Origin: Terriglobia bacterium
GTDB taxonomy: Bacteria > Acidobacteriota > Terriglobia > 20CM-2-55-15
DNA length: 64,000 nucleotides
Assembly: GCA_965216035.1 (NCBI GenBank)
Contig: CBDCFM010000021.1
Coordinates: forward strand, 4,236-68,235
Direction of reading: 5' to 3'
Below, one piece after another: positions 1 through 53,194 of this stretch (position 1 is the stretch's first letter; every line of letters starts with the position of its first letter). Under the pieces are notes generated by a model, which saw nothing but the letters and a program-made list of their open reading frames with translations, had not been told where the DNA came from and made no database searches. The position numbers and the translations under genes are program-made.

Positions 1-619
1 GGAGCCGCCCGCCACTAACGGGAACTGTCGTTTTCGGACGAGGTCGGCAATCGCGCCGTCTTTGGAAAACGTGGTTTGGGGACCATATAGGCTTCCATAC
101 CTCAAGACCACACCTTCGAGGTCCGACGTCGCCAACACCAGGCGCTCAAGTTCGGGCAAGCGCCTCAACTGTTCGGCGCCAGGGCCAGGACGCGTTGAGC
201 CACAGAGGGGCAGTTTCATCCTGTACGGGTCCGCCCTCGGGGATGTATGCGAACGCGATACTCTGGGCGACAATGCGGCCGACACCTGCCATTGCGGCGG
301 CCTCGACCAGGTTACGGGTGCCCTCGACACGAATTCGGTCGTTTTCCGGGAGCTGGGTTTCGATCTTTCTGGGATCGATGGCTTTGGGTAACGACGTCAG
401 CTCGTGGATGAGTTCCTCAGGCTGCGCCTTTCGCACCGCTTCTTTAAGGCTGCTCAAGTCGTAGACGTTGCATACCACCGCCTGTATGCCGCGCGAAGCA
501 AGCTCTTCGGCCCGAGACACGTTGCGTGTCATCGCGGTTACGGTATGGCCTGCTTCGATCAGGTGGGGTAGGAGCGACCGCCCGATCACGCCGGTCGCAC
601 CAGCAACGAATACTCTCAT
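1..619 (-). pseudogene. NAD(P)-binding SDR/NmrA-like epimerase-type protein; reading frame broken near 146-215 and 3'-partial at the window edge
   Basis: The ORF 146..619 opens with a Rossmann motif (MRVFVAGATGVIGRSL) but stops after 157 aa. The minus-strand continuation in another frame (2..~240) reads ...ELERLVLATSDLEGVVLRYGSLYGPQTTFSKDGAIADLVRKRQFPLVAGG, a typical C-terminal half of this family. This is a frameshift or a sequencing error. Confidence 0.45.
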
Positions 620-622
620 GAC

Positions 623-1063
623 TCACGGCCGCTCTGTTGGCGGCTTGTCTCCGGGCCCCGGCAAGTGGGCTTTTCGTCTCGACCCTGAAACTTCCTGGTC
701 GATCAGCGTTTCCAGATCGGCGTAGGCATAAATGACGGGCGTATTGTTCTGCATGAGTCCACCGGTGTCGGCAGTCGGCCAGTAATTGCTATGCAGGTCC
801 CTGTTGAGCATCCGCAACATGGCCATCTGCTGTCCCCTGTGATGCGCAGTGTGCGCGACTCTCCGCACGAAAACCCAGGCCCGCGACCGTTCCACATTGA
901 AGAACTCGGCCGGTGTCTCCCACCAGTCCTCGCCCTGACTGCGGAGGGCATCCAGTCGCTTTCCGGAGTCGTCCAGGTATCGCTCGATGAAACCGAGGCG
1001 CGTTTCTTCGACAGGCAACGGCGGCGCGGCGACATCGATGTCCAGCATCCGGCAGAACCAGAG
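623..1063 (-). pseudogene. DinB/YfiT-like (DinB_2 family) protein, C-terminal fragment separated from its N-terminus by IS481-family copy 1
   Basis: The flank-encoded part of ORF 623..1105 carries the HxxxH metal-binding motif (VAHTAHHRGQ). Its first 14 codons (MCLDYSVNDVPGRS) are encoded by the IS end. Confidence 0.6.
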
Positions 1064-2381
1064 TGAACGGCCGGGAACATCATTGACAGAATAGTCCAGG
1101 CACATCCTTTACAGTTTGTACCTCTTTCTCATTCTATTCCCCAAAGCATCTTGAATGGTAAAGGTCCGTTCGTCCATTTGTCCGAGACGAACGGTGCCGA
1201 AGTAGACATCCCAGACGCCGTCGTCGACTTCCTCGAGTCCGACGTACTCACCTTCAAGGGTGTGGGTGATTGGAACACGATGGGCCGACCACCGGAATCC
1301 CCCGTTCCGACTGACCAGTCGCGTTTCGAAATGAGACGGATACTCGATGGGAGGCAGGCCCAACGGAAACTCCCGTGAAGAGGTTTGATAGCGGGAGTCG
1401 GGCGTTTCCTGGTCCAGCGCCTCATGGGGACGCACAGTGTTGAATTCCTCAACAAAACGATTGAACCGGAATTGCTGAGCCCGCATCGTGGCCGCTGGCG
1501 GCCGAGTGGTCTCTTGTTTCAAGGTTTTGTGCATGCGTTCGTGTCGGCCGTTTTGATCTGGCCGGCCGGGCTGAATCAATTCGGGGAAGATTCCGAGGCG
1601 GATCCACCAGACCGATAGCCGGCTCAGTCGCCCGATGGCCGTGGTGGCGAACGGCGGCCCGTTATCGGTCCGGATGATTGCAGGGAGACCGAAGTTCCGG
1701 AAGACACTCTTGAATACGGACTTCGCGCGAACATGATTAGTCGAGTAGAGGCCCTTACATGCGAGCAGATACCGGGTGCAACCGTCGGTGATCGTCAACG
1801 GATAGCAATAGATGCCATCCCCAGTTTTAAACTCGCCTTTATAGTCCGCACACCAGACATCATTGGACCGATCCATTGAAGTCACGGGCTTGCCCGGATG
1901 ACCCGGATAGGTGCGTCTCCGCTTCTTCTCCACAAGCCCATGACGTTTCAGCAGTTCCGAGATCGTCGATCGGGCGGGCCAGTCGACCTCGGGATGCCGG
2001 GTATTCAAGATCTTAAGAAGCTTCTTGGCCCCCCAGTGAGGATGTTTGCGGCGCAGATCGATCACCCGCCGCACCACATCGTCTGACGTCCGATGCGGGC
2101 AGCCGACAGGACGACGGGAACGCTCCTCCAATCCGGATTGGCCATTCTCCAAGAATCTGTCAATCCACTTATATCCGGTGGGCCGGCTCACCCCGTAGCG
2201 CGCACACAGTTCGACGATCGAGAAAGATCGAGTAAGATAATCGGCAATAAATAATCGTTTTTGATCCATGGTCGTTGATTGATCCCAGGGCATATGAAGT
2301 CCTCCACGGAGGACTTCATCGTGATCGATCTGTAAACCATGTACCCGGACAGATATGTAAACGATGTACCCGGACCGTACC
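1064..2381 (-). mobile_element. IS481-family insertion sequence, copy 1 (1318 bp) with imperfect ~26-bp terminal inverted repeats and 3-bp target duplication GAG
   Basis: Identical to 51759..53076. The ends TGAACGGCCGGGAACATC... and ...GATGTACCCGGACCGTACC are imperfect inverted repeats. The flanking triplet gag occurs at 1061-1063 and 2382-2384. Confidence 0.85.
1109..2293 (-). CDS. IS481-family DDE transposase (HTH plus rve integrase core)
   Basis: The N-terminal HTH MDQKRLFIADYLTRSFSIVELCARYGVSRPTGYKWIDRF and the integrase-core region are typical of IS481. The start is set at the first Met inside the IS (MPWDQ...), because the ORF-track N-termini of the two copies differ exactly where they extend beyond the IS boundary. 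Confidence 0.85.
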   Translation of the reverse strand: MPWDQSTTMDQKRLFIADYLTRSFSIVELCARYGVSRPTGYKWIDRFLENGQSGLEERSRRPVGCPHRTSDDVVRRVIDLRRKHPHWGAKKLLKILNTRHPEVDWPARSTISELLKRHGLVEKKRRRTYPGHPGKPVTSMDRSNDVWCADYKGEFKTGDGIYCYPLTITDGCTRYLLACKGLYSTNHVRAKSVFKSVFRNFGLPAIIRTDNGPPFATTAIGRLSRLSVWWIRLGIFPELIQPGRPDQNGRHERMHKTLKQETTRPPAATMRAQQFRFNRFVEEFNTVRPHEALDQETPDSRYQTSSREFPLGLPPIEYPSHFETRLVSRNGGFRWSAHRVPITHTLEGEYVGLEEVDDGVWDVYFGTVRLGQMDERTFTIQDALGNRMRKRYKL

Positions 2382-2558
2382 GAGGTCCTCGCTGACACAT
2401 TGGTGCACCATCTGCTCGTGAACGCTTCGACCGCGCGGATCCCCGGCTTGGGGCCGGATCGTCAGATCGTTGTCGTCGAACATGCTCCAGACACTGAGCG
2501 TCTTGAGCCGCTCGGTGTCGTAGGTATCGATCAGGAACTGGTAGCGCACGACACGCAC
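2382..2558 (-). pseudogene. DinB-like protein, N-terminal fragment (probable original start at Met 2483)
   Basis: ...YQFLIDTYDTERLKTLSVWSMFDDNDLTIRPQAGDPRGRSVHEQMVHQCVSEDL matches the DinB_2 N-terminus with its first conserved His. The fragment is in frame with 623..1063 once the IS and one copy of the GAG duplication are removed. Confidence 0.55.
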
Positions 2559-3196
2559 TCCGTATTCACGAAATCGCCTTCGAACGAGTCAGGAGTCAGA
2601 CCTGCGTCGCGAAGCTGAGATTCCAGCCGTGCGACACGATTCTGAAGCTCCCGGACGACGGGCGACATCTCCTCTTCGGTAAAGCGTGACTGGATGTGCT
2701 GCGGGCAGTTCACATCCCAGGCCAGGACCCGAAATACGAGGGCGCGCTCCGGCTTCGCCTGGTATTCCGCGTCGCGAAGGCTGTTCAGCAGTTCAGGGTC
2801 GTCCTCAACGAATTCAGCCTCACCCCAGATCTTGATTCGGCGGCGGTTGGGATAATCCATCAGGAAGATGAACGCCTTGTTGTTCTCGCTCAGGTTGCCC
2901 AGGGAGATGTACTGGGCGTTTCCGGCGAAGTCAGCCAGAGCGAGGGTTCGGTCGTCCAAGATCTTGAGGAAACCCTTCGGGCCTCCCCGATGCTGGATGT
3001 AAGGTTGGCCCGAGGCGTTTGCGGTACCCAGATACAGCGAGTCTCTCTGGGCGATGAAGTCCCGGAGTTCCGGAGTGACAACGTCGGCCCACCCTCCCCT
3101 CTGTTCCATCTTCGAGTAGGAGCGCCGAGACCCCCGAGCGTCCTGGGCCGTTTTGACTGCAGGCGTGAATGCAATGTCGCTGATTGGATGTTCCAT
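2531..3196 (-). CDS. pyridoxamine 5'-phosphate oxidase-like FMN-binding (split-barrel) family protein
   Basis: Family-level resemblance only, with no diagnostic motif checked. The start was moved to the internal Met (MEHPISD) to remove overlap with the upstream hydrolase gene. Confidence 0.55.
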   Translation of the reverse strand: MEHPISDIAFTPAVKTAQDARGSRRSYSKMEQRGGWADVVTPELRDFIAQRDSLYLGTANASGQPYIQHRGGPKGFLKILDDRTLALADFAGNAQYISLGNLSENNKAFIFLMDYPNRRRIKIWGEAEFVEDDPELLNSLRDAEYQAKPERALVFRVLAWDVNCPQHIQSRFTEEEMSPVVRELQNRVARLESQLRDAGLTPDSFEGDFVNTECVSCATSS

Positions 3197-3224
3197 TTCG
3201 ATCTCTCCCTTCGGACCTCTTCGC

Positions 3225-4139
3225 TCATGCCACGCTATGGCCACGGTCTCGATGAACCACTTTGCGGTCGAGAAACTCGCGAATTCGCGTTGCAATCACA
3301 TCGCCGTCCTCCTCCAACGCGAAGTGCCCGGTGTCAAGCAGATGGAACTCGAGGTCTTTCAAATCACGTCGATAGGGCTCGGCACCTTCACTGGGGAAGA
3401 TGAAGTCATTCTTTCCCCACACCACAAGCGTCGGTGGTTGTTCGCGCCTGAGAAATTCCTGCCACGCAGGATAGTGCGGTGGGTTCGATCCGTAGTCGTA
3501 GAACAACTGCAACTGGATTTGCTTGTTTCCGGGCCGCTCGAGAAGAAACTGGTCGTGATACCAGTTATCTGGAGCAATCGCTGTTGGATTCCGAACACCG
3601 TGCGTGTACTGCCACCGAGTGGCTTCCAGCGTCAAGAGCGAATCCTGAAGGGTTTTCGCCTGCTCCTCGGACCGGTCTTGCCAGTATGCCTTGATCGGGT
3701 CCCAGAATTCGCGCAGCCCTTCCTCGTAGGCGTTGCCATTCTGAACGATGAGTGCCTCGACGCGCTCCGGATGCTTCAATGCCAGCCGATAGCCGACCGG
3801 GGCTCCATAGTCCATCAGGTACAGACTGTACCGATCTATTCCAAGCTGCGACACGAGTTGGTCGATGACTTCGGCGAAGGTATCAAACGTGTAATCGAAT
3901 TCCTCTGGGCTGGGCATGGAACTTGCCCCGAAACCCGGATAGTCTGGTGCGACGACGTGGAAGCGATCGGAAAGGGCCGGAATCAGGTTCCTAAACATGT
4001 GTGACGATGTCGGGAATCCGTGCAGTAAGAGCACGGTCGGGCCATCCACCGGACCCGCCTCTCGGAAGAAGATGTCGAGATCGCCGACTTTGATCGTGCG
4101 GTGCTGTGTCTGCGTTTTGGGCTTGCCGTCAGTAGACAT
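3225..4139 (-). CDS. alpha/beta-fold hydrolase (epoxide hydrolase / haloalkane dehalogenase-like)
   Basis: The [17 protein letters not shown]... and LMDYGAPVG nucleophile-elbow context is typical of the family, and the length (304 aa) fits. Confidence 0.75.
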
Positions 4140-4200
4140 TGCTGATCCTCTATTTTTGTTGGTTGAGCTGCCTTAATTGAGACTCGCATCCGCCGTCGAG

Positions 4201-4905
4201 TCAGTTACCGACGGCGACCGCCTCGGTGGCCTGCTGTAGCTTTGCGACGGCCTCTGGGGTCGTCCAGACGGCACTCGCGATATAGCGGTAGTTCACCAGG
4301 GCCGCTTCATAGCCGTCGCCTTCGGGCACTCTCGCCCCGGCGGTGGCGTCTGACACGACGGCGACTTCGAACCCCTGTTCGGTCAACTCCCGCATGTGGC
4401 TCTCGGTGCAGAGATTGGCCGACATCCCGGCCAGTATCACCCGCGAGATTCCACGCTTTCGCAACTGGAGAACCAAATCGTTGGTCTCGGGTCCGAAGAC
4501 TTTATGGGGACTGGCTACAATGGTGTCGCCATCGTTGATATAGGGCTTGTACTGTTCCAGCCAGTCGGCGCCGGAGTTCTCGAAGCCGTCCAGCTTGAGA
4601 GACCCGGCCCGGTCGAACATTCCGATGTTGTGCATCAGGGTTTCCAGCGCCCCCTCGAACTTCCAGCCGTGGTCGGTTGGATAGTAGTAGTGAGGCGAGA
4701 CGAAAACAGGGATACCGGTGGCCTTGGCGGCCTTGAACAGCGACTCGATGTTCGCGACGGTGTTGTTCTCGGTTACGCTCTCACCCACCACACCCCAGGC
4801 CACGCCATCCGGGCTGAGAAAATCGTTCTGCGGATCTGTGATCAGCAGAGCAGTGTTGGAGCTATCAATTTGCATTCCCGGTACGGGTAGAAACGATGAA
4901 GTCAT
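4201..4905 (-). CDS. isochorismatase-family cysteine hydrolase
   Basis: TALLITDPQNDFLSP is the family signature. The start is set at MTSSFLPV (ATG 4905), which has an AGGAGA Shine-Dalgarno 8 nt upstream and lies downstream of the sigma-54 promoter. Confidence 0.75.
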   Translation of the reverse strand: MTSSFLPVPGMQIDSSNTALLITDPQNDFLSPDGVAWGVVGESVTENNTVANIESLFKAAKATGIPVFVSPHYYYPTDHGWKFEGALETLMHNIGMFDRAGSLKLDGFENSGADWLEQYKPYINDGDTIVASPHKVFGPETNDLVLQLRKRGISRVILAGMSANLCTESHMRELTEQGFEVAVVSDATAGARVPEGDGYEAALVNYRYIASAVWTTPEAVAKLQQATEAVAVGN

Positions 4906-4953: not shown

Positions 4954-4968
4954 GCAAGTTCACGTCCA
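4954..4968 (-). promoter_or_regulatory. sigma-54 (-24/-12) promoter TGGACG-N5-TTGC driving the isochorismatase / hydrolase / PNPOx (/DinB) operon
   Basis: Minus-strand TGGACGTGAACTTGC has GG and GC separated by exactly 10 bp, as in the TGGCAC-N5-TTGC consensus. It is divergent from a sigma-54 activator gene. Confidence 0.5.
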
Positions 4969-5060: not shown

Positions 5061-6728
5061 ATGTCGGCAGCCACCAACGATATTTCGATAGAATGGCGCG
5101 CGATGGACACGACCGTATCGAGTTTCAACGCCGACAATATTCGGCAGTTGCTGCTGGACATGGCTCAGGAACGGAGGGTTGACGGTGTATTGTCCCTAGT
5201 GGTTGAAAGAGTGTCGGAGGAATCCGATGTCGCGCTGGCTCGAGTCTGGCTCAAGGGCCCCGGGGACATCTGCAAGGAATGCGGAATGCTACCGGAATGT
5301 CCCGACCAGTCCGAATGCCTGCACCTGGTGGCCAGCGCCGGTCATTCATCCGCCGAGGACGGCCTTCACTGGCAGCGACTGGACGGATCCTTTCGACGGA
5401 TGCCGATGGGTGTTCGCAAGGTCGGCCACATCGCCGCGACAGGAGCACCGGTCGAGATCGCCGACGTTACCGTGGACGGAAAGTGGATCGCCAGGCCCGA
5501 CTGGGTGGCGGCAGAAAAGATCCGGGGATTCGGCGGACAACTGTTAATCCACCAGGGCGACGTCCTCGGCGTCCTGGCGGTATTCGCCCGCTGTGTGATG
5601 ACACACGATAACCTGATATGGCTGCGTATGATCGCCAACCACGCGGCAACCGCCATCGCGAATGCCAGGGCCTTTGAAGAGATCGACCGTCTGCAGAAGC
5701 GCTTGGAAGACGAGAACGAATACTTGCGCGAAGAAGTTCGTGTGGCTCACGGATTCAGCGAAATCATCGGCGAGAGCGCAGCACTGAAGAAGGTGCTGAC
5801 TCAAGTCGAATTGGTGGGCCCGACGGATACGAGTGTTCTCGTGACCGGGGAGTCCGGGACCGGCAAGGAGTTGATTGCCCGGGCGATTCATCAGATCAGC
5901 CGTCGAAGCAGCCAGCCGATGGTCAGCGTCAACTGCGCGTCGATCCCCCGTGAGTTGTTCGAAAGCGAGTTTTTCGGGCACGTCAAGGGGGCTTTCACTG
6001 GTGCGGTTCGAGATCGGGTCGGTCGTTTTCAATTGGCAGACGGCGGAACGATCTTTCTGGACGAAGTGGGAGAGATCCCGATCGAGCTTCAGAGCAAGTT
6101 GCTGCGAGTGCTCCAGGAAGGTGCCTTCGAGCGTGTTGGCGATGATCGAACCCGTCGGATCGACGTCCGGATCGTAGCGGCGACGAACCGAGATCTCAAG
6201 GCCGATGCTGCCGCGGGCCGATTCCGGGAAGATCTCTACTATCGGCTCGGGGTGTTTCTGATCGAGTCCACGCCGCTTCGAGAACGGACTGAGGACATTC
6301 CGCTACTCGCGATGCGATTCGTCCGGGACATCGGTCAGCGCCTGGGTATCCCCACCCCAAAACTGAAACGCCGTCACATTCTGGCACTCAAAGGCTACGG
6401 TTGGCCCGGCAACGTGCGTGAACTCCAGAATGTCATCGAGCGCGCCGTGATCGTTGCGCGGTCAGGAGTCCTGGACTTCAATTTGCCGAATCAGAGCCGG
6501 CCCAGCCACGAATCACGGACAGATAAAGATAGTCGCTCCGGCGTCGTCAACTATGAGGAACTTCATCGGAGGGAACGGGACAATCTGATAGCTGCTCTCA
6601 AAGAGACGAACTGGCGGATTTCTGGCCCCGAGGGTGCGGCCGTGCTTCTTGGCGTTAAACACACGACGCTGGCATCCAAGATCAAGGCGATGAAGATCGA
6701 GCGATCGAACAGGGAACACCGAGATTGA
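5061..6728 (+). CDS. sigma-54-dependent transcriptional activator with N-terminal GAF domain and C-terminal Fis-type HTH
   Basis: Walker [16 protein letters not shown], the sigma-54 contact motif GAFTGA, and a C-terminal HTH ([12 protein letters not shown] ... [11 protein letters not shown]). Confidence 0.85.
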
Positions 6729-24512: not shown

Positions 24513-24700
24513 TGCGTATTCCGGACCATCCTGAACACTGATTCCGATCCATCGTGAACACCGATTCCGGGATCGTGAACGCGGATTCCGGGATCCTGAA
24601 CAGTGATTCCGGTGATCCTGAACACCGATTCCGGCCATCGTGATCACTCGTCGGTAGCGAAGTTTGGAGCTTTTAGGTTCTCCTGAAGCACAGGAGGGCC

Positions 24701-27012: not shown

Positions 27013-27401
27013 TCGGCGCACCGATGCATCCACACGCCGCCGCCAGGGGGTACTCCAGGCCGGCCCCGGACCCAATCGTCGCTCCTGCGCAATCCTCGCG
27101 CGAAGGAAGTGCGGGAATCCGGGTCCGGGCGCGGAACGCGCGCCTCACGCAGGGCACGGGGCCTGTGGAAACTGCCGCAGCCGTGCAAATGGGAATGGTG
27201 GCCTTCGGCCGACTTTCTCTTGATCATTTCCACCGCTGCTTGCAAAAGCCTCCGCAAAAAACGCTCCCGGCTTTCGCACAGTTACACACAGGCCGGCGGC
27301 GATTTATCACAATAATTTTGGAAAGGACTAAAACAGAGAAAACCTGGACTCTGAAAGGAATAAACTGAGACGCTAACCCGTCGCTTCGCTCCGGCGAGTG
27401 T

Positions 27402-29162
27402 TCACGATGGCCGGAATCGGTGTTCATGATTCCGGAACTGGTGTTCACGATCAGCGGAATACCCATTGAGCACGTGCTTGGGGAATTCCCTCCAGACCAA
27501 AGCCCTCGCCCGATCCAACATGTATTCATCCTGATCGAAATCGGGATCCAGTTCCAGCAGGATGCCCGCGATGGTGATCTGTGACTTAATAAAGAGCGCA
27601 ATGTTGAAGCGGGTTTGAAATCCGGCTGTGGCCAGGTCAACGATCAGCCTCTGAAGGGTCGGGAATACCTCGGACTTCTGCCCCACCGCTCGGTCCACGA
27701 TTTCACCTATCTTTTCGTGTTCTGCAGCAGACGCCGGTGGCCATTCCTCAATCAGCGCCCCCACATTATTCACGATACGCTTGGTGTTTCCGAGATGGAC
27801 TCCGAGGACCAGTTGAACGAGTTGTGCTCGCTGCGCCCGAGGGAAACTGCCGTAGAGTCCCCAATCCAAAAGGGCAATTTGGTACGGATTCGAGGCGTCT
27901 TCAGAAACATGGAAGACGTTGCCGGCGTGGGGATCACCGTGGAAGATGGCCTCTTCTGCTGAGGAAAATATTACATCGACCGTGAGAACGTCACTTAGAC
28001 GCTGGGCCATTTCCTTACGGTCACCCGGCTGGCCGGTGTGCGCATCCGTGATCTTATTTCCAGGGACAAACTCCATCGCTGTCACGTTTGGTGTTGAAAG
28101 CGGGTACAGATGAGGTACCCGGACTGCGGGGTTGCCGGCGTAGTAGGTTTCGGCCAAAGCCAAGTTCCGCTGCTCATCCACAATGCGGATTTCGCTCGAG
28201 AGTGCTGTTTTGACATCCCGAAAGGTGTCGGAGAGCGGAATGTCGCCAAGACCGTAGGCGCTGCTGTTTTCCTCGAAGAACAGGGAGAGTTGATCGAGTA
28301 TTTCAAGTTCCCGCGGCAGCGATTCCAGGACGTAGGGCTTGACGACCTTGAAAACGATATCTTCTTCGCTTTCTCTCTCTGCCTGGATGAGGGTGGCGCG
28401 GATCACGGCTCCGACGCTGGCTTCGGCCAAGATATCTTCAGCGAATCGGACTTGAAATGTGTCGATAGCTTCTTGACCGATGTCCTCCTCGATCAATCCG
28501 ACTATTTCTTCAGGATCTGAAGTCGCAATGCCGTTTTCCAGGGTCTGCAAAGCCATGCGGAGGTCCGGCGACAGGTCTGGATTACGAGCCAGAATCTGAC
28601 CAATCTTTTGCAGCGAGGGTGTCCTGTCAGTGAACTTGAGCAGCCGGTCTGCCCTGCCCGTACCTGCGGGCAGATAGGTCAAGTTTAAAATTCGCTCGAA
28701 AATCCGTTCGTCGCCCAACCCATCCAGGAAAAACAAGAGTGAATCGTGGACAACGGGAATCCAATCTGATGCGCTACCCGGGACAAGGTCGAGAATACTG
28801 GAATGGTGGATCAGCAATTCCAGAATCTCCCTACGGAACGGTTCCAGGTCGAGTGATCGAAGCAAGGTCAAGGCTTCAGAACGATGTACTTGCGGCGTAG
28901 TCCCGGCTGAGCGAGGACTGAGGAACTGCTGAACTATCGCCTGAGATTCGACATCCAATTCCGGCAGCAATGTATTCAGCAGACGGATGCCTGCCAGGTC
29001 GGCGTCGAAACGTGTGTAATGGGCGGGTGGCGTCGGCAGCTCCAGGTCGGCACCATCCGCCATGGGAGCGAGGCACAGGAGGGGGAGGATTACAGCATTT
29101 GAAAGAAATCGTCGCGTCATTAGTCGGTTTTTACAAAAACAACGGAAAGTCTTCCTCTGCAT
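27402..29162 (-). CDS. ABC1/UbiB-family atypical protein kinase; the last ~21 codons and the stop are derived from the IS21 end
   Basis: Kinase-like motifs KVVKP, HGDPHAGNV and LDWG. The N-terminus looks like a signal peptide (MTRRFLSNAVILPLLCLAPMA). Confidence 0.7.
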   Translation of the reverse strand: MQRKTFRCFCKNRLMTRRFLSNAVILPLLCLAPMADGADLELPTPPAHYTRFDADLAGIRLLNTLLPELDVESQAIVQQFLSPRSAGTTPQVHRSEALTLLRSLDLEPFRREILELLIHHSSILDLVPGSASDWIPVVHDSLLFFLDGLGDERIFERILNLTYLPAGTGRADRLLKFTDRTPSLQKIGQILARNPDLSPDLRMALQTLENGIATSDPEEIVGLIEEDIGQEAIDTFQVRFAEDILAEASVGAVIRATLIQAERESEEDIVFKVVKPYVLESLPRELEILDQLSLFFEENSSAYGLGDIPLSDTFRDVKTALSSEIRIVDEQRNLALAETYYAGNPAVRVPHLYPLSTPNVTAMEFVPGNKITDAHTGQPGDRKEMAQRLSDVLTVDVIFSSAEEAIFHGDPHAGNVFHVSEDASNPYQIALLDWGLYGSFPRAQRAQLVQLVLGVHLGNTKRIVNNVGALIEEWPPASAAEHEKIGEIVDRAVGQKSEVFPTLQRLIVDLATAGFQTRFNIALFIKSQITIAGILLELDPDFDQDEYMLDRARALVWREFPKHVLNGYSADREHQFRNHEHRFRPS

Positions 29163-40261: not shown

Positions 40262-40430
40262 GCCCTGGCAGGCTTGGGGGGAAAAGGCTCGTTTTTCGGC
40301 AGTCCGCCATGCGGCACAGGATGTGCCACGATTTTCGATGGCTGTAAGCCATGCGAGAATTACACGTCTCGGATGGCGATGCTGAAAAAGTCATGGATGG
40401 CTTTTCGAGCATCCTGTTAGTGGGCTTGCC
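40262..40430. repeat. conserved ~150-nt intergenic element, copy A (palindrome GGCAC-N5-GTGCC at 40313-40327)
   Basis: Most positions are identical to 43875..44025 over more than 100 nt, with two short indels. Confidence 0.5.
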
Positions 40431-43874: not shown

Positions 43875-44025
43875 GGCTGGGGAAAAACGCTCGTTTTTCC
43901 TCGAGTCTGCTATGCGGCACAAGATGTGCCACGATTTTCGATGGCTGTCAGCCATTGAAAATGTGAGCCATGCGGGAATCACACTTCTCGGATGGCTTTT
44001 TCAGCATCCTGATAGTGCCCACCAC
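43875..44025. repeat. conserved ~150-nt intergenic element, copy B (palindrome GGCAC-N5-GTGCC at 43916-43930)
   Basis: It starts 3 nt after the TG2 stop and is the same element as copy A. Confidence 0.5.
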
Positions 44026-49089: not shown

Positions 49090-51543
49090 ATGAGCCATGC
49101 ATATTGCCGGGGCCGACTCCTAGCCCTTCTGTTCATATTCTTGTTGTGTGGACCGCCGGTTACGGAACTGAGGGCCCAGGCTGCCCAGACGGGAAACATT
49201 GAAGGCAGCGTCGTCGACCGAGTCACCGGTGAGGCGCTTTCGGACGCGCTGATCAGCATTGAAGGAACTGATGTCAGCACCACCGCGAACGCCATCGGAC
49301 GCTTTGAATTGCTGGGAATCTCGACTGGAGAGGCCGTCGTCCTGATCGAAGCGCCAGGTTTTCTCCCGCTACGCATCCCCGAACTCCGGGTCGGCGCTGA
49401 GGCCAGCTTGCAGCTCGAAGTCGGCATGGAGCGAACGCCAAACATATTTCAACAGATTCAGGTGACGGCGACCAAAGATGCCGTCAGCATCGGCGATCTT
49501 GCCGTCCCCGCGACCATACTCGACAGTGAGTCGATAGAACGTCGAGGCGACCTCGAACTGACGAACGCTCTGGAAAATGTGCCGGGTATGATTGTCAGCG
49601 GACAGCTCGGACCCTTCGAATCCATTCTCATGCGAGGGATGCCAAGATCCGGCAACGAGAACGAGACCACGCTCCTGCTCATCGACGGTGTCCCACAGAC
49701 CGACTCGAGAAACAGCGCGCGTGTGATCAATCTCCCGATCCACGATGCCAGCAGAGTCGAAATCATCCGTGGCCCCAATTCTGCGCTTTATGGCCGAACT
49801 GCGATCGGCGGATCGGTCAACGTGATTACCGGCAACCCCACGCCGACGCCGAGATTCTCCGTCGATCTGACGGGTGGGAGCTTTGGAACGTTCAAAGCCG
49901 TCGCGACGGCCTCCGGGCCGATTTCCGATTGGGGTGGCTATTACGTGTCGACGGCGGGCAACCGTGACCACGGTTACTACGAAAAAGACTTCAATTTCGG
50001 CGTGGAAGAATCGTCGCATTTCGGCAAGTTCACTTTTATTCCGGATGAACGGTCTCTGGGCAGCGTCAGTTTCAATCGCGTGCTCTCCGACAACAGCACT
50101 GCAACCAACGAACCGATCGTAACCGATCCCGCCACGGGTGAATTCGAGCTGCTGCACAAGGTTGATCCGGATTTTGTCCGCCTGAGCAACCTGAACATTC
50201 CTGTGACGAATTACCATCAGGAAGAAACTCGAGCAACGCTGAACTACACGCGGGAGTTGGCCCCCTGGGTGAGTCTGACCGAAATACTCGGTTACCGAAA
50301 AATCCAGTACAAGTTTATCGACGACGGAGATTTTATCGGGTCACCGTTCGACTTGACGGCCCAGACCCTCTCCATGTATCCGTTCGAGCAGCAAACGGAT
50401 GAAGACATCTGGTATCAAGAGTTGAGGTTCAACGTCGACCATAGCTTCGGAAATATCGAAGGTGATTTAATCGCGGGCTGGTCGTATGAAAACACCAACG
50501 GTTACAAACTGGGTAACCTGATATTTACGGACGAAGATCTCTTCGGTATCCCGCTCAACTACGTCGATCCTGTCATTCCTCCCCGAAAAGACTGGCAGTA
50601 TTTCCAAATCGGCGGACGGGACTACGATCTGGGCAATCACGGAGTCTTTGGTCAGTACACTATTGAGCCCGGCCGATTCATTCTTTCGGGAGGGGGGCGC
50701 TACGATCGGCTCCGACTCGACAACGTGCGCACGCTCGATGCTGGACAGCCGAGTTTCAGCGAGACTTTCGAAGCCTTCAGCCCCAAGGCCAGCGCGACGT
50801 TCAAGCTACTGGGAGCCGACGGGATCGGACCGTCAGTCAACGTCTATGGCGCATACTCAGAAGCGTTTCGACCGCCTCGAGTTCCGAGTTCTCTATCGCT
50901 CAGCACGGATGAGGAACAGCTGGACCCCGAAAACGTCCGCAACTACGAAGCGGGTGTCAAGGCCAGCCTCCTGGATGATCGTCTCTCCCTGGAAGGCGGG
51001 TTCTTTTGGATGGACCGGGAGGGCATCGTGATCTCGATTCGAAGGGGCGCATTCTTTGAAGACGCGAATGCCGGAGCGCACGAATATAAAGGGCTCGAGT
51101 TCGGGGCTAGTTTTGCGGCGACCGACGAAGTGTCCGTCTTCGGAAACGCTGCGTTCTACCGAAATAAATTCGCGGATTTCGTTGTCGAAACCGAAAACAG
51201 CGTGACCGATTTGACTGGCAATCGGCTCAACCTCTCTCCCGAATACATCGTTAACTGGGGTGTCCTCTACTCGCCGCTGCTTCAGGTGGATCTCACTCTG
51301 GACGTCAAGCATGTCGGCGACACATTTGTGGATATCGGAAATCAGTTCCTGCTGGATCCATATACGATCGTCGATGCGGCCGTCGCTTGGAGTGTCGGGC
51401 CAGCGCGGTTCACACTCTCGGCGACCAACCTGTTCGATAAGGAGTACTACTGGGGTGGCGGGAGTTCGTCGGTCGAGGTCGCCGATCCGGGACGCCCAAG
51501 GCAGATTCTGTTGCGGACGTCTTTTGAGTTCGGGCCCGAATAA
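49090..51543 (+). CDS. TonB-dependent outer-membrane receptor (carboxypeptidase-regulatory-like N-domain plus plug plus barrel)
   Basis: Signal peptide, then the plug and 22-strand barrel pattern ending with a C-terminal F, 817 aa. Confidence 0.85.
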   Translation: MSHAYCRGRLLALLFIFLLCGPPVTELRAQAAQTGNIEGSVVDRVTGEALSDALISIEGTDVSTTANAIGRFELLGISTGEAVVLIEAPGFLPLRIPELRVGAEASLQLEVGMERTPNIFQQIQVTATKDAVSIGDLAVPATILDSESIERRGDLELTNALENVPGMIVSGQLGPFESILMRGMPRSGNENETTLLLIDGVPQTDSRNSARVINLPIHDASRVEIIRGPNSALYGRTAIGGSVNVITGNPTPTPRFSVDLTGGSFGTFKAVATASGPISDWGGYYVSTAGNRDHGYYEKDFNFGVEESSHFGKFTFIPDERSLGSVSFNRVLSDNSTATNEPIVTDPATGEFELLHKVDPDFVRLSNLNIPVTNYHQEETRATLNYTRELAPWVSLTEILGYRKIQYKFIDDGDFIGSPFDLTAQTLSMYPFEQQTDEDIWYQELRFNVDHSFGNIEGDLIAGWSYENTNGYKLGNLIFTDEDLFGIPLNYVDPVIPPRKDWQYFQIGGRDYDLGNHGVFGQYTIEPGRFILSGGGRYDRLRLDNVRTLDAGQPSFSETFEAFSPKASATFKLLGADGIGPSVNVYGAYSEAFRPPRVPSSLSLSTDEEQLDPENVRNYEAGVKASLLDDRLSLEGGFFWMDREGIVISIRRGAFFEDANAGAHEYKGLEFGASFAATDEVSVFGNAAFYRNKFADFVVETENSVTDLTGNRLNLSPEYIVNWGVLYSPLLQVDLTLDVKHVGDTFVDIGNQFLLDPYTIVDAAVAWSVGPARFTLSATNLFDKEYYWGGGSSSVEVADPGRPRQILLRTSFEFGPE

Positions 51544-51758
51544 CCTAGATGAAAGCGACAGATTATTGTCTTGTAGGTGCGGGCATCCATTAGCATGGGG
51601 CCCACCGTCCTTCGGCCGGTCCCCCCATATGCTCTATCTCTGTGGCCCCTGAGCGCGCCAAACCAGGCGCGACATTTACGACATGCGTCGGAAGACCCCA
51701 CCTGCAGCTGAACGGAAGCCCCTACCCGATAAATCCACCGCTGGCGCAAAGGCGAATC

Positions 51759-53076
51759 TGAACGGCCGGGAACATCATTGACAGAATAGTCCAGGCACAT
51801 CCTTTACAGTTTGTACCTCTTTCTCATTCTATTCCCCAAAGCATCTTGAATGGTAAAGGTCCGTTCGTCCATTTGTCCGAGACGAACGGTGCCGAAGTAG
51901 ACATCCCAGACGCCGTCGTCGACTTCCTCGAGTCCGACGTACTCACCTTCAAGGGTGTGGGTGATTGGAACACGATGGGCCGACCACCGGAATCCCCCGT
52001 TCCGACTGACCAGTCGCGTTTCGAAATGAGACGGATACTCGATGGGAGGCAGGCCCAACGGAAACTCCCGTGAAGAGGTTTGATAGCGGGAGTCGGGCGT
52101 TTCCTGGTCCAGCGCCTCATGGGGACGCACAGTGTTGAATTCCTCAACAAAACGATTGAACCGGAATTGCTGAGCCCGCATCGTGGCCGCTGGCGGCCGA
52201 GTGGTCTCTTGTTTCAAGGTTTTGTGCATGCGTTCGTGTCGGCCGTTTTGATCTGGCCGGCCGGGCTGAATCAATTCGGGGAAGATTCCGAGGCGGATCC
52301 ACCAGACCGATAGCCGGCTCAGTCGCCCGATGGCCGTGGTGGCGAACGGCGGCCCGTTATCGGTCCGGATGATTGCAGGGAGACCGAAGTTCCGGAAGAC
52401 ACTCTTGAATACGGACTTCGCGCGAACATGATTAGTCGAGTAGAGGCCCTTACATGCGAGCAGATACCGGGTGCAACCGTCGGTGATCGTCAACGGATAG
52501 CAATAGATGCCATCCCCAGTTTTAAACTCGCCTTTATAGTCCGCACACCAGACATCATTGGACCGATCCATTGAAGTCACGGGCTTGCCCGGATGACCCG
52601 GATAGGTGCGTCTCCGCTTCTTCTCCACAAGCCCATGACGTTTCAGCAGTTCCGAGATCGTCGATCGGGCGGGCCAGTCGACCTCGGGATGCCGGGTATT
52701 CAAGATCTTAAGAAGCTTCTTGGCCCCCCAGTGAGGATGTTTGCGGCGCAGATCGATCACCCGCCGCACCACATCGTCTGACGTCCGATGCGGGCAGCCG
52801 ACAGGACGACGGGAACGCTCCTCCAATCCGGATTGGCCATTCTCCAAGAATCTGTCAATCCACTTATATCCGGTGGGCCGGCTCACCCCGTAGCGCGCAC
52901 ACAGTTCGACGATCGAGAAAGATCGAGTAAGATAATCGGCAATAAATAATCGTTTTTGATCCATGGTCGTTGATTGATCCCAGGGCATATGAAGTCCTCC
53001 ACGGAGGACTTCATCGTGATCGATCTGTAAACCATGTACCCGGACAGATATGTAAACGATGTACCCGGACCGTACC
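51759..53076 (-). mobile_element. IS481-family insertion sequence, copy 2 (identical to copy 1), target duplication ATC
   Basis: Same 1318 bp as 1064..2381. The triplet atc occurs at 51756-51758 and 53077-53079. Confidence 0.85.
51804..52988 (-). CDS. IS481-family DDE transposase
   Basis: Identical to 1109..2293. Confidence 0.85.
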   Translation of the reverse strand: MPWDQSTTMDQKRLFIADYLTRSFSIVELCARYGVSRPTGYKWIDRFLENGQSGLEERSRRPVGCPHRTSDDVVRRVIDLRRKHPHWGAKKLLKILNTRHPEVDWPARSTISELLKRHGLVEKKRRRTYPGHPGKPVTSMDRSNDVWCADYKGEFKTGDGIYCYPLTITDGCTRYLLACKGLYSTNHVRAKSVFKSVFRNFGLPAIIRTDNGPPFATTAIGRLSRLSVWWIRLGIFPELIQPGRPDQNGRHERMHKTLKQETTRPPAATMRAQQFRFNRFVEEFNTVRPHEALDQETPDSRYQTSSREFPLGLPPIEYPSHFETRLVSRNGGFRWSAHRVPITHTLEGEYVGLEEVDDGVWDVYFGTVRLGQMDERTFTIQDALGNRMRKRYKL

Positions 53077-53194
53077 ATCTTTTAACTAACATCTAGGTGG
53101 ATCGCCCGGTGCGGATCGGTTCGGCACGCACAAGGTCGTGGGCGGACATCGAATCAAAGAGTACGTATCAAACCAGAAACAGGGGAGACGCATC

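Follow-up and report, generated by a model that had tools for sequence, protein, structure and literature searches.

The 64,000-nt stretch of Terriglobia DNA analysed here (the window; positions 4,236 to 68,235 of contig CBDCFM010000021.1) carries near its left end a DinB-family gene that is interrupted by an insertion sequence (IS) of IS481-like type. This element, copy 1, occupies 1064..2381 on the minus strand (1318 bp). A second copy lies 50.7 kb away at 51759..53076, also on the minus strand; all 1318 positions of the two copies are identical, and the match ends precisely at the element borders. Copy 1 is flanked by GAG triplets at 1061..1063 and, on the transposase-5′ side, at 2382..2384, where GAG on the plus strand is CTC, the codon for Leu56, on the minus strand. 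The coordinates of the element and of both triplets had been given correctly in a preliminary description made from the sequence. The two parts of the gene, both on the minus strand, adjoin the triplets: codons 1–56 at 2382..2549, and codons 56–201 with the stop codon at 623..1063. As an open reading frame (ORF), the N-terminal fragment runs 21 codons into the element, to a stop at 2316; orthologues start MRYQFL at the matching ATG. We consider it about 90% probable that an IS481-like element inactivated a DinB/YfiT-family gene of 201 aa by entering it at codon 56, an ordinary pseudogenising insertion.

Deletion of 1064..2384 in silico yields an open frame of 615 nt. The preliminary description had made its reconstruction depend on whether this ORF aligns with DinB or DinB_2 proteins across the junction; it does, and both Pfam models span the junction, DinB with 30.5 bits (cut-off 23) over residues 16–144 and DinB_2 with 29.1 bits (cut-off 24.8) over residues 14–136. 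The split Leu codon that had been described is also present, although as Leu56 rather than Leu59, the likely real start being the ATG at 2549 (201 aa); residues are numbered here from that ATG, which is the start used by the intact orthologues. Such orthologues are found on three metagenome contigs (L001–L003), which keep the 201-aa gene uninterrupted (P0001, P0002; 98% identity) and among neighbours arranged as in the window, as the proposed comparison with uninterrupted relatives had anticipated. In all three the empty site reads GAGGAC-CTC-TGGTTC; the intact alleles carry a single CTC where the window has GAG-IS-GAG, with a Leu codon at each junction. Because the empty-site sequence is identical to that of the excised window, the 3-bp duplication of the Leu56 codon is a true target duplication. 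Repeats often break or mis-join metagenome assemblies, and a repeat misplaced by the assembler would make the interrupted gene an artefact. The chance of this is practically negligible, given that the same junctions occur in three independent assemblies and that the perfect 3-bp duplication has an exact complement in the empty site.

The consequences for the protein were judged on an AlphaFold model of the intact orthologue P0001 (pLDDT 82, pTM 0.79), which has helices at residues 4–21, 43–61, 77–96 and 116–140. Foldseek searches with the model returned 3di5 (E 2e-4, target TM 0.78), 3dka, 6iz2 and 1rxq, all of them DinB/YfiT structures; a sequence search of the PDB gave a marginal match to 3di5 only (E 0.08). 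Four histidines, His49, His126, His129 and His130, are invariant among 34 homologues. The element lies inside helix 2, after His49 and before the invariant Trp57/Phe58, so that the N-terminal fragment holds helix 1 and most of helix 2, including His49. According to the model, neither fragment should be able to fold or bind metal alone. Because the insertion cuts helix 2 and parts His49 from His126/129/130, loss of DinB function is strongly indicated. The restored gene resembles the DinB/YfiT family (PF05163/PF12867; 3di5, 1rxq, 6iz2) in its four-helix bundle and conserved histidines. What sets it apart is its place in a distinct subfamily of 200-aa proteins whose C-terminal extension (SNYGPTADTGGLMQN...LPGPG..TERP) is conserved. 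This subfamily is abundant in Acidobacteriota. Besides P0001 and P0002, a protein-collection search returned thousands of 200-aa relatives at 65–80% identity; among named genomes, a scan gave Terriglobia metagenome-assembled genomes as the nearest, at 77% DinB identity.

Comparison of the C-terminal fragment with intact orthologues revealed two substitutions in the window, Gly150→Trp (779–781) and Ala163→Thr (740–742). The carrier allele P0012 (locus L004) has Gly150Trp only. Because both changes fall in columns that are invariant in 119 homologues, they suggest that the fragment is decaying. Over the compared region the window is 99.92–99.94% identical to the other carrier assemblies, L004 and L007, and 98.5–99.0% identical to the empty alleles of L001–L003; one sample, ERZ25069191, has both alleles, the carrier on a 14x contig and the empty site on a 2x contig. 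The insertion is recent and is polymorphic among strains about 1% diverged. The locus documents how an IS inactivated a gene, one environmental population having both the empty and the occupied allele, and the junction is usable as a strain marker.

The insertion also creates a 160-aa ORF, 623..1105, whose first 14 codons (MCLDYSVNDVPGRS, 1105..1064) are IS sequence; as the preliminary description pointed out, the same peptide opens ORF 51447..51800 beside copy 2. That description took the outward-facing ATG as a feature that can create fusion ORFs with downstream host DNA. In its strongest form, this would make the IS end a portable start codon and the 160-aa ORF (14 IS residues followed by DinB residues 56–201) a translated and functional product, expressed for example by reinitiation. 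The ATG does lie 3 nt past the transposase TAA and in frame with DinB, the element is co-oriented with the operon so that read-through transcripts would cover the ORF, and gene callers assign an identical start to the SLT_2 fragment of locus L010. Nevertheless, we hold a functional product of this kind to be very improbable. It would comprise a fragment without helix 1 and most of helix 2, including the invariant His49, and with two substitutions at invariant columns. Read on the opposite strand, the ACAT core of the terminal 18-nt repeats supplies both outward ATGs, and the repeat (TGTAAAGGATGTGCCTGG) also contains the transposase stop TAA; the start codon is thus accounted for by the sequence of a transposase-binding repeat and is not an evolved start. 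AAGG directly abuts the ATG with zero spacer, which does not look like a normal ribosome-binding site. The frame itself is not conserved: in a 69%-identical relative it is closed by TAG after 4 codons, and a 1-nt insertion shuts it after 8 codons in L005 and in L008, whose copy shares its insertion site with window copy 2.

What remains of the in-frame arrangement is what chance predicts. The codon-matched duplication and the open frame, described earlier as an exactly in-frame split, are both seen; a 3-bp duplication coincides with a codon once in three times, and two of the three outward frames at the transposase-3′ end are open, each with an ATG, so that a fusion ORF is expected in about two-thirds of intragenic insertions. 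ORFs behind the outward ATG range from 8 to 219 aa, their length being set solely by downstream DNA; the two long ones enter the DinB fragment here and the SLT_2 fragment in L010. ORF 51447..51800 does not join the element to a host gene. Copy 2 stands in intergenic DNA, with a TonB-dependent receptor gene on one side and the neighbouring gene on the other, and the ORF, which arose by chance, overlaps the 3′ end of the receptor gene in antisense. A product of ORF 623..1105 would begin MCLDYSVNDVPGRS-LWFCRML. The locus is also a warning for annotation: false ‘fusion’ proteins are what gene callers make of such IS ends, and public protein collections already include P0012.

The genes upstream of DinB (2531..4905, minus strand) encode an isochorismatase-like protein (4201–4905), an alpha/beta hydrolase (3225–4139) and a PNPOx-like protein (2531–3196), in an order that is the same in L001–L003 and in the distant Terriglobia genomes L015 and L016. 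The full order in L001–L003 is sigma-54 activator, divergent isochorismatase, alpha/beta hydrolase, PNPOx-like gene, DinB and a split SDR gene. DinB had been taken for the last gene of the operon. This is not so, as a co-oriented SDR/NmrA-like ORF begins 4 nt beyond the DinB stop; its N-terminal half lies at 146..619 (minus strand). In L015 and L016 the activator, isochorismatase, hydrolase, PNPOx and DinB genes stand together and the SDR gene is absent, so that the conserved core closes with DinB in these distant genomes. The SDR gene (window 1–619, minus strand; L001 8610–9546) has a +1 frameshift near ...NASWP(C/W)R..., correction of which would give a protein of about 305 aa. Because the same frameshift is common to strains with and without the IS, this gene had already been broken before the insertion.

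The state of the SDR gene bears on whether the insertion has been kept because it is useful, either through selection for DinB loss or through altered expression downstream, as with IS481 in Bordetella pertussis, where read-through and outward promoters into neighbouring genes are documented (PMC6161684). The occupied site is present in three assemblies (the window, L004 and L007), and in the sample that has both alleles the carrier outnumbers the empty allele, 14x against 2x. That difference, however, is one of strain abundance and not of selection at the locus. Furthermore, the sole downstream gene is frameshifted in carriers and non-carriers alike, leaving nothing obvious to regulate, and a consensus scan for an outward sigma-70-like promoter or a terminator found no site at the IS ends and gave counts at shuffle level, although acidobacterial promoters may differ. 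A benefit from the insertion is, on this evidence, improbable.

Sigma-54 control of the isochorismatase operon, as proposed in the preliminary description, is plausible but unproven. The part that stands is the divergent activator (5061..6728, plus strand), a GAF/sigma-54-interaction AAA+/HTH_8 protein by Pfam whose sigma-54 interaction domain (PF00158) scores 237.9 bits and which adjoins the operon also in L015 and L016. The promoter is less certain: a candidate read by eye upstream of the first gene, TGGACG-TGAAC-TTGCG (4968..4954, minus strand), has the correct GG-N10-GC spacing but 3 mismatches to the 16-mer consensus TGGCAC-N5-TTGCW. A pattern scan of the window allowing up to 2 mismatches gave counts no higher than shuffles and missed this candidate.

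The transposase gene of copy 1 (1109..2293, minus strand, ATG at 2293) is a single continuous ORF of 394 aa plus stop, without programmed frameshift. Pfam places HTH_32 and HTH_28 at the N-terminus, followed by LZ_Tnp_IS481 (PF13011; 28.9 bits, cut-off 22.2), rve (49 bits) and rve_3 (54.8 bits). The top NCBIfam model is IS481 (NF033577), with 214.7 bits, which is below the curated 224 but covers positions 2–284 of 284; the IS3 model is second, with 113 bits against a cut-off of 160. Because IS481 is best by 100 bits over the full model length, the element classifies as a divergent member of the IS481 family and not as a member of another, in agreement with the family named in the preliminary description. 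The ISAzo13 family, which makes 3-bp duplications, was also considered and is absent among the NCBIfam matches of the transposase. No stop closes the transposase frame before it has passed the IS 5′ end and entered the flank (window 2382–2398, minus strand; protein cluster of P0121), and gene callers consequently give the same transposase variable N-terminal extensions, with lengths of 394, 426, 432, 435, 457 and 519 aa.

The ends of the element are imperfect inverted repeats (5′-GGTACGGTCCGGGTACATCGTTTACA... / ...TGTCAATGATGTTCCCGGCCGTTCA-3′), each with two copies, 25 nt apart, of an 18-nt repeat CCrGGnACATsnTTkACA. At the transposase-5′ end (2331..2381, minus strand; 5′-GGTACGG...) the repeats, CCGGGTACATSGTTTACA, lie at 2356–2373 and 2331–2348; at the transposase-3′ end (1064..1113, minus strand; ...GCCGTTCA-3′) they lie at 1071–1088 and 1096–1113, and this region holds both the transposase stop TAA (1109–1111) and the outward ATG (1103–1105). 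IS481-family terminal repeats start with TGT in ISfinder. The ends found here, 5′-GGTACGGTCC... / ...GGCCGTTCA-3′, do not begin with TGT, and a TG/CA dinucleotide is present at one end only; TGT ends are also given for the eukaryotic relatives of IS481 (PMC10045372). A TGTTAG hexamer near the element was considered as the true terminus under the TGT rule, and was rejected: the empty sites show it to be native DinB DNA, and it is GGTACGG that the duplication adjoins.

A 12-bp perfect hairpin, ATGAAGTCCTCC-gtg-GGAGGACTTCAT (2293..2319, minus strand), encloses in the minimum-free-energy fold the GGAGGA ribosome-binding site before the transposase ATG. A hairpin stands at the equivalent place in copy 2, L095 and L096; in L096, a site of the 69% relative, its sequence is different and GGAGG lies in the loop. 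Elements of the IS3/IS911 type classically cover the ribosome-binding site of their transposase with a hairpin, and the one seen here looks like that classical protection against activation by read-through transcripts.

The same element, with 0–1 substitutions, is present at other sites of related contigs, two copies having in addition a 1-nt insertion. Comparison of flanks (the identical element at L005–L013, the 69% relative at L096–L098) revealed perfect 3-bp duplications at six independent sites of the element (CCG, CCG, CAG, CGG, GAT, CTC) and at three sites of the relative (GCG, CGA, GAC). The identical transposase protein was found on 49 contigs of the protein collection and in 61 index blocks, and one 1.88-Mb contig holds at least five copies of it. 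Together with the two identical copies in the window, these counts point to recent activity of the element.

Other repeats and elements were encountered alongside it. An IS3-family element with two ORFs (HTH_Tnp_1 + rve) is found repeatedly in the same genomes (L001 14704–15932, L009 1010–2238, L095 8–1185) and once directly adjoins the IS481-like element. In the window, two 78-nt direct repeats, 79% identical and 3.6 kb apart, lie at 40275–40352 and 43878–43955, each with a palindrome TGGCACATCCTGTGCCA. A 40-nt inverted repeat, 93% complementary, surrounds 2.7 kb (24615–24654 and 27391–27430) and may bracket another mobile element.

The position of the element within DinB is probably a matter of target preference. 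The native DinB DNA facing its GGTACGG end contains TGCACCAATGT-GTCAGCG (2390..2407, minus strand), which ends 8 nt before the IS and is present also in the empty sites of L001–L003. Beside copy 2, which is flanked by ATC at 51756–51758 and 53077–53079, GTTAGTT lies 14 nt from the GGTACGG end (motif region 53080–53095). A TGTTAG-like hexamer was found 9–10 nt before the GGTACGG end in the flanks of L005–L013 and L096–L098. A scan of JGI metagenomes with the IS end sequence gave 97 stretches, which collapsed to 39 distinct sites when similar flanks were merged. GTT[AGT][AGT] starts 14–16 nt from the IS, in fixed orientation, at 24 of the 39; other 5-nt windows of these flanks give a background of 4.2% (binomial P about 1e-23). 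The insertion-site consensus of the clade, from 24 aligned sites, is cTGCAnCnnnnT-GTTAGGC. No mirror motif was found on the opposite flank of the insertion sites.

The relatives recovered from metagenomes are heterogeneous, with 47–79% transposase identity, truncated copies and miniature elements, and a regular-expression search for their 3′ ends mostly recovered none. Some carry GGTACGG on the transposase-3′ side. Because this is the arrangement in relatives at about 47% identity, the orientation rule is best put as the GGTACGG end facing the motif. Oriented, motif-directed targeting is statistically solid as a pattern in these alignments; as a mechanism it is a proposal.

The sequence of events that we envisage is as follows. 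An IS481-like element transposed into codon 56 of the fourth gene of the isochorismatase/hydrolase/PNPOx/DinB operon, the transposase probably choosing the target such that the GGTACGG end was placed 14–16 nt downstream of a GTTAGGC-like motif. Insertion by the DDE transposase made the 3-bp duplication and left two DinB fragments. The 160-aa IS-to-DinB ORF would have arisen by accident, since its ATG is part of the transposase-binding repeat, and the orphaned DinB gene would then have begun to decay. Several points weigh against parts of this scheme. The case for decay amounts to three amino-acid differences in all, and read-through transcription and termination-reinitiation at TAA-AGG-ATG may take place. 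The core of the DinB motif, GTCAGCG, matches GTTAGGC at only 4 of 7 positions, and two of the nine identical-element sites (L006, L009) are without the motif. The preference would for these last two reasons be a bias and not a strict specificity, and the same two observations would fit a random insertion point whose likeness to the clade consensus is coincidental. Such a coincidence seems unlikely, if still worth keeping in view. The DinB site, gTGCACCAATGT-GTCAGCG-AGGAC-CTC, agrees with the consensus at each of the six conserved upstream positions (T, G, C, A, C, T), and its distance from the duplication, 15 nt, is the modal one. GTT, moreover, stands at −15 or −14 in five of the nine identical-element sites, against an expectation of about 3% per site.

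Many of the metagenome flanks of relatives contain palindromes that resemble attC, the recombination site of integron gene cassettes; the relatives sit 7–8 nt from the GTTAGGC end of these palindromes. The clearest case is L164, in which eight imperfect palindromes of about 135 nt (GCCTAAC...GTTAGGC) lie 450–900 nt apart and fold end to end with minimum free energies of −63 to −84 kcal/mol. The intervening ORFs share a strand and have the TAA of GCCTAAC as their stop codon, and an IS-like element lies 7 nt from one palindrome of the array. The flanks of relatives thus present two features of attC, an imperfect palindrome with RYYYAAC/GTTRRRY ends and an array with single co-oriented ORFs, on contigs that are short, at most 7.6 kb. 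An ungapped search for inverted partners of the GTTAG arm gave none, because attC stems are bulged; folding recovered the partners, and end-to-end pairing was found at five more sites (L118, L122, L134, L150, L192). By folding, the window copies are not in attC-like palindromes. For that reason the signal read by the transposase is most likely a short double-stranded motif.

Some 40 flanks (about 10 after collapsing) contain a different repeat of about 100 nt with terminal inverted repeats of its own (GGGGATAGGGC...GCCCTATCCCC). It is struck by the IS always at one position, after GTTATGTCAAGTCCC (for example in L102, L103, L107, L108 and L119), and occurs intact, without the IS, nine times (L105, L108, L123, L127, L133, L156, L162, L190, L191). 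Rfam gave no match on loci with this ‘class 1’ repeat or with the attC-like array. Miniature elements of about 105 nt were also observed, consisting of the two IS ends only (four 18-nt repeats) with short flanking duplications (L168 about 2851–2957, L137 about 781–885); they are probably non-autonomous derivatives. In L110 (about 240–290), 3 nt (GTA) separate a relative from the end, ...CCCCGTTCGTTCA, of another element that is related but different; this is either an end-to-end junction of two elements or a case of targeting of another element's end.

These observations can be drawn together, tentatively and at a little less than even odds, as follows. The element would belong to a widespread, undescribed IS481-like DDE branch with 3-bp duplications, GGTACGG ends, two repeats per end and miniatures of about 105 nt, which inserts in one orientation 14–16 nt beyond the attC-core T-GTTAGGC. 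It would be a third kind of attC-seeking element, of a different mechanism and found in environmental bacteria, and the DinB site an off-target look-alike. If this is true, a motif-reading DDE transposase would explain the accumulation of the clade beside gene-cassette recombination sites, and would constitute a new route for breaking, rearranging or mobilising cassette arrays in soil and sediment bacteria. We find the target choice of this clade, with its association with attC-like sites, more interesting than the disruption of DinB itself.

Two known kinds of element seek attC sites: the IS1111-attC group, with a DEDD transposase and guide RNA (PMC11187229), and the group IIC-attC introns (PMC3001079). 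Full-text searches of the open-access literature found no link between IS481-type elements and attC. The likeness to both lies in the fixed position and orientation that they adopt at integron attC sites, relatives of the window element lying near attC-like sites. In contrast to their RNA-guided DEDD transposase or retrohoming ribozyme, the window element has a DDE transposase. Nor is it restricted to attC, as both window copies are at degenerate motifs in ordinary DNA.

With the IS481 family (type element IS481, Bordetella pertussis) the element shares a single-ORF DDE transposase that has an N-terminal helix–turn–helix, a leucine zipper and an rve core, and NCBI names homologues of the window transposase ‘IS481 family transposase’. 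It differs in several respects: no copy in a plasmid collection (cultured bacteria; annotated IS481 family) is more than 48% identical to the transposase, which has about 90 additional C-terminal residues, and the element ends GGTAC... / ...GTTCA, not TGT...ACA. Its 3-bp duplication is a minority length, still inside the range for the family, which is 2–15 bp and mostly 6 (ISfinder, as quoted in PMC10045372). Duplications of 3 bp are typical of IS3-type elements (PMC10045372), and the element resembles the IS3 family (IS3/IS911) in this and in having a related rve-type DDE core. It is unlike that family in that there are no two overlapping ORFs with a −1 frameshift, and the score with the IS3 model is far below the cut-off.

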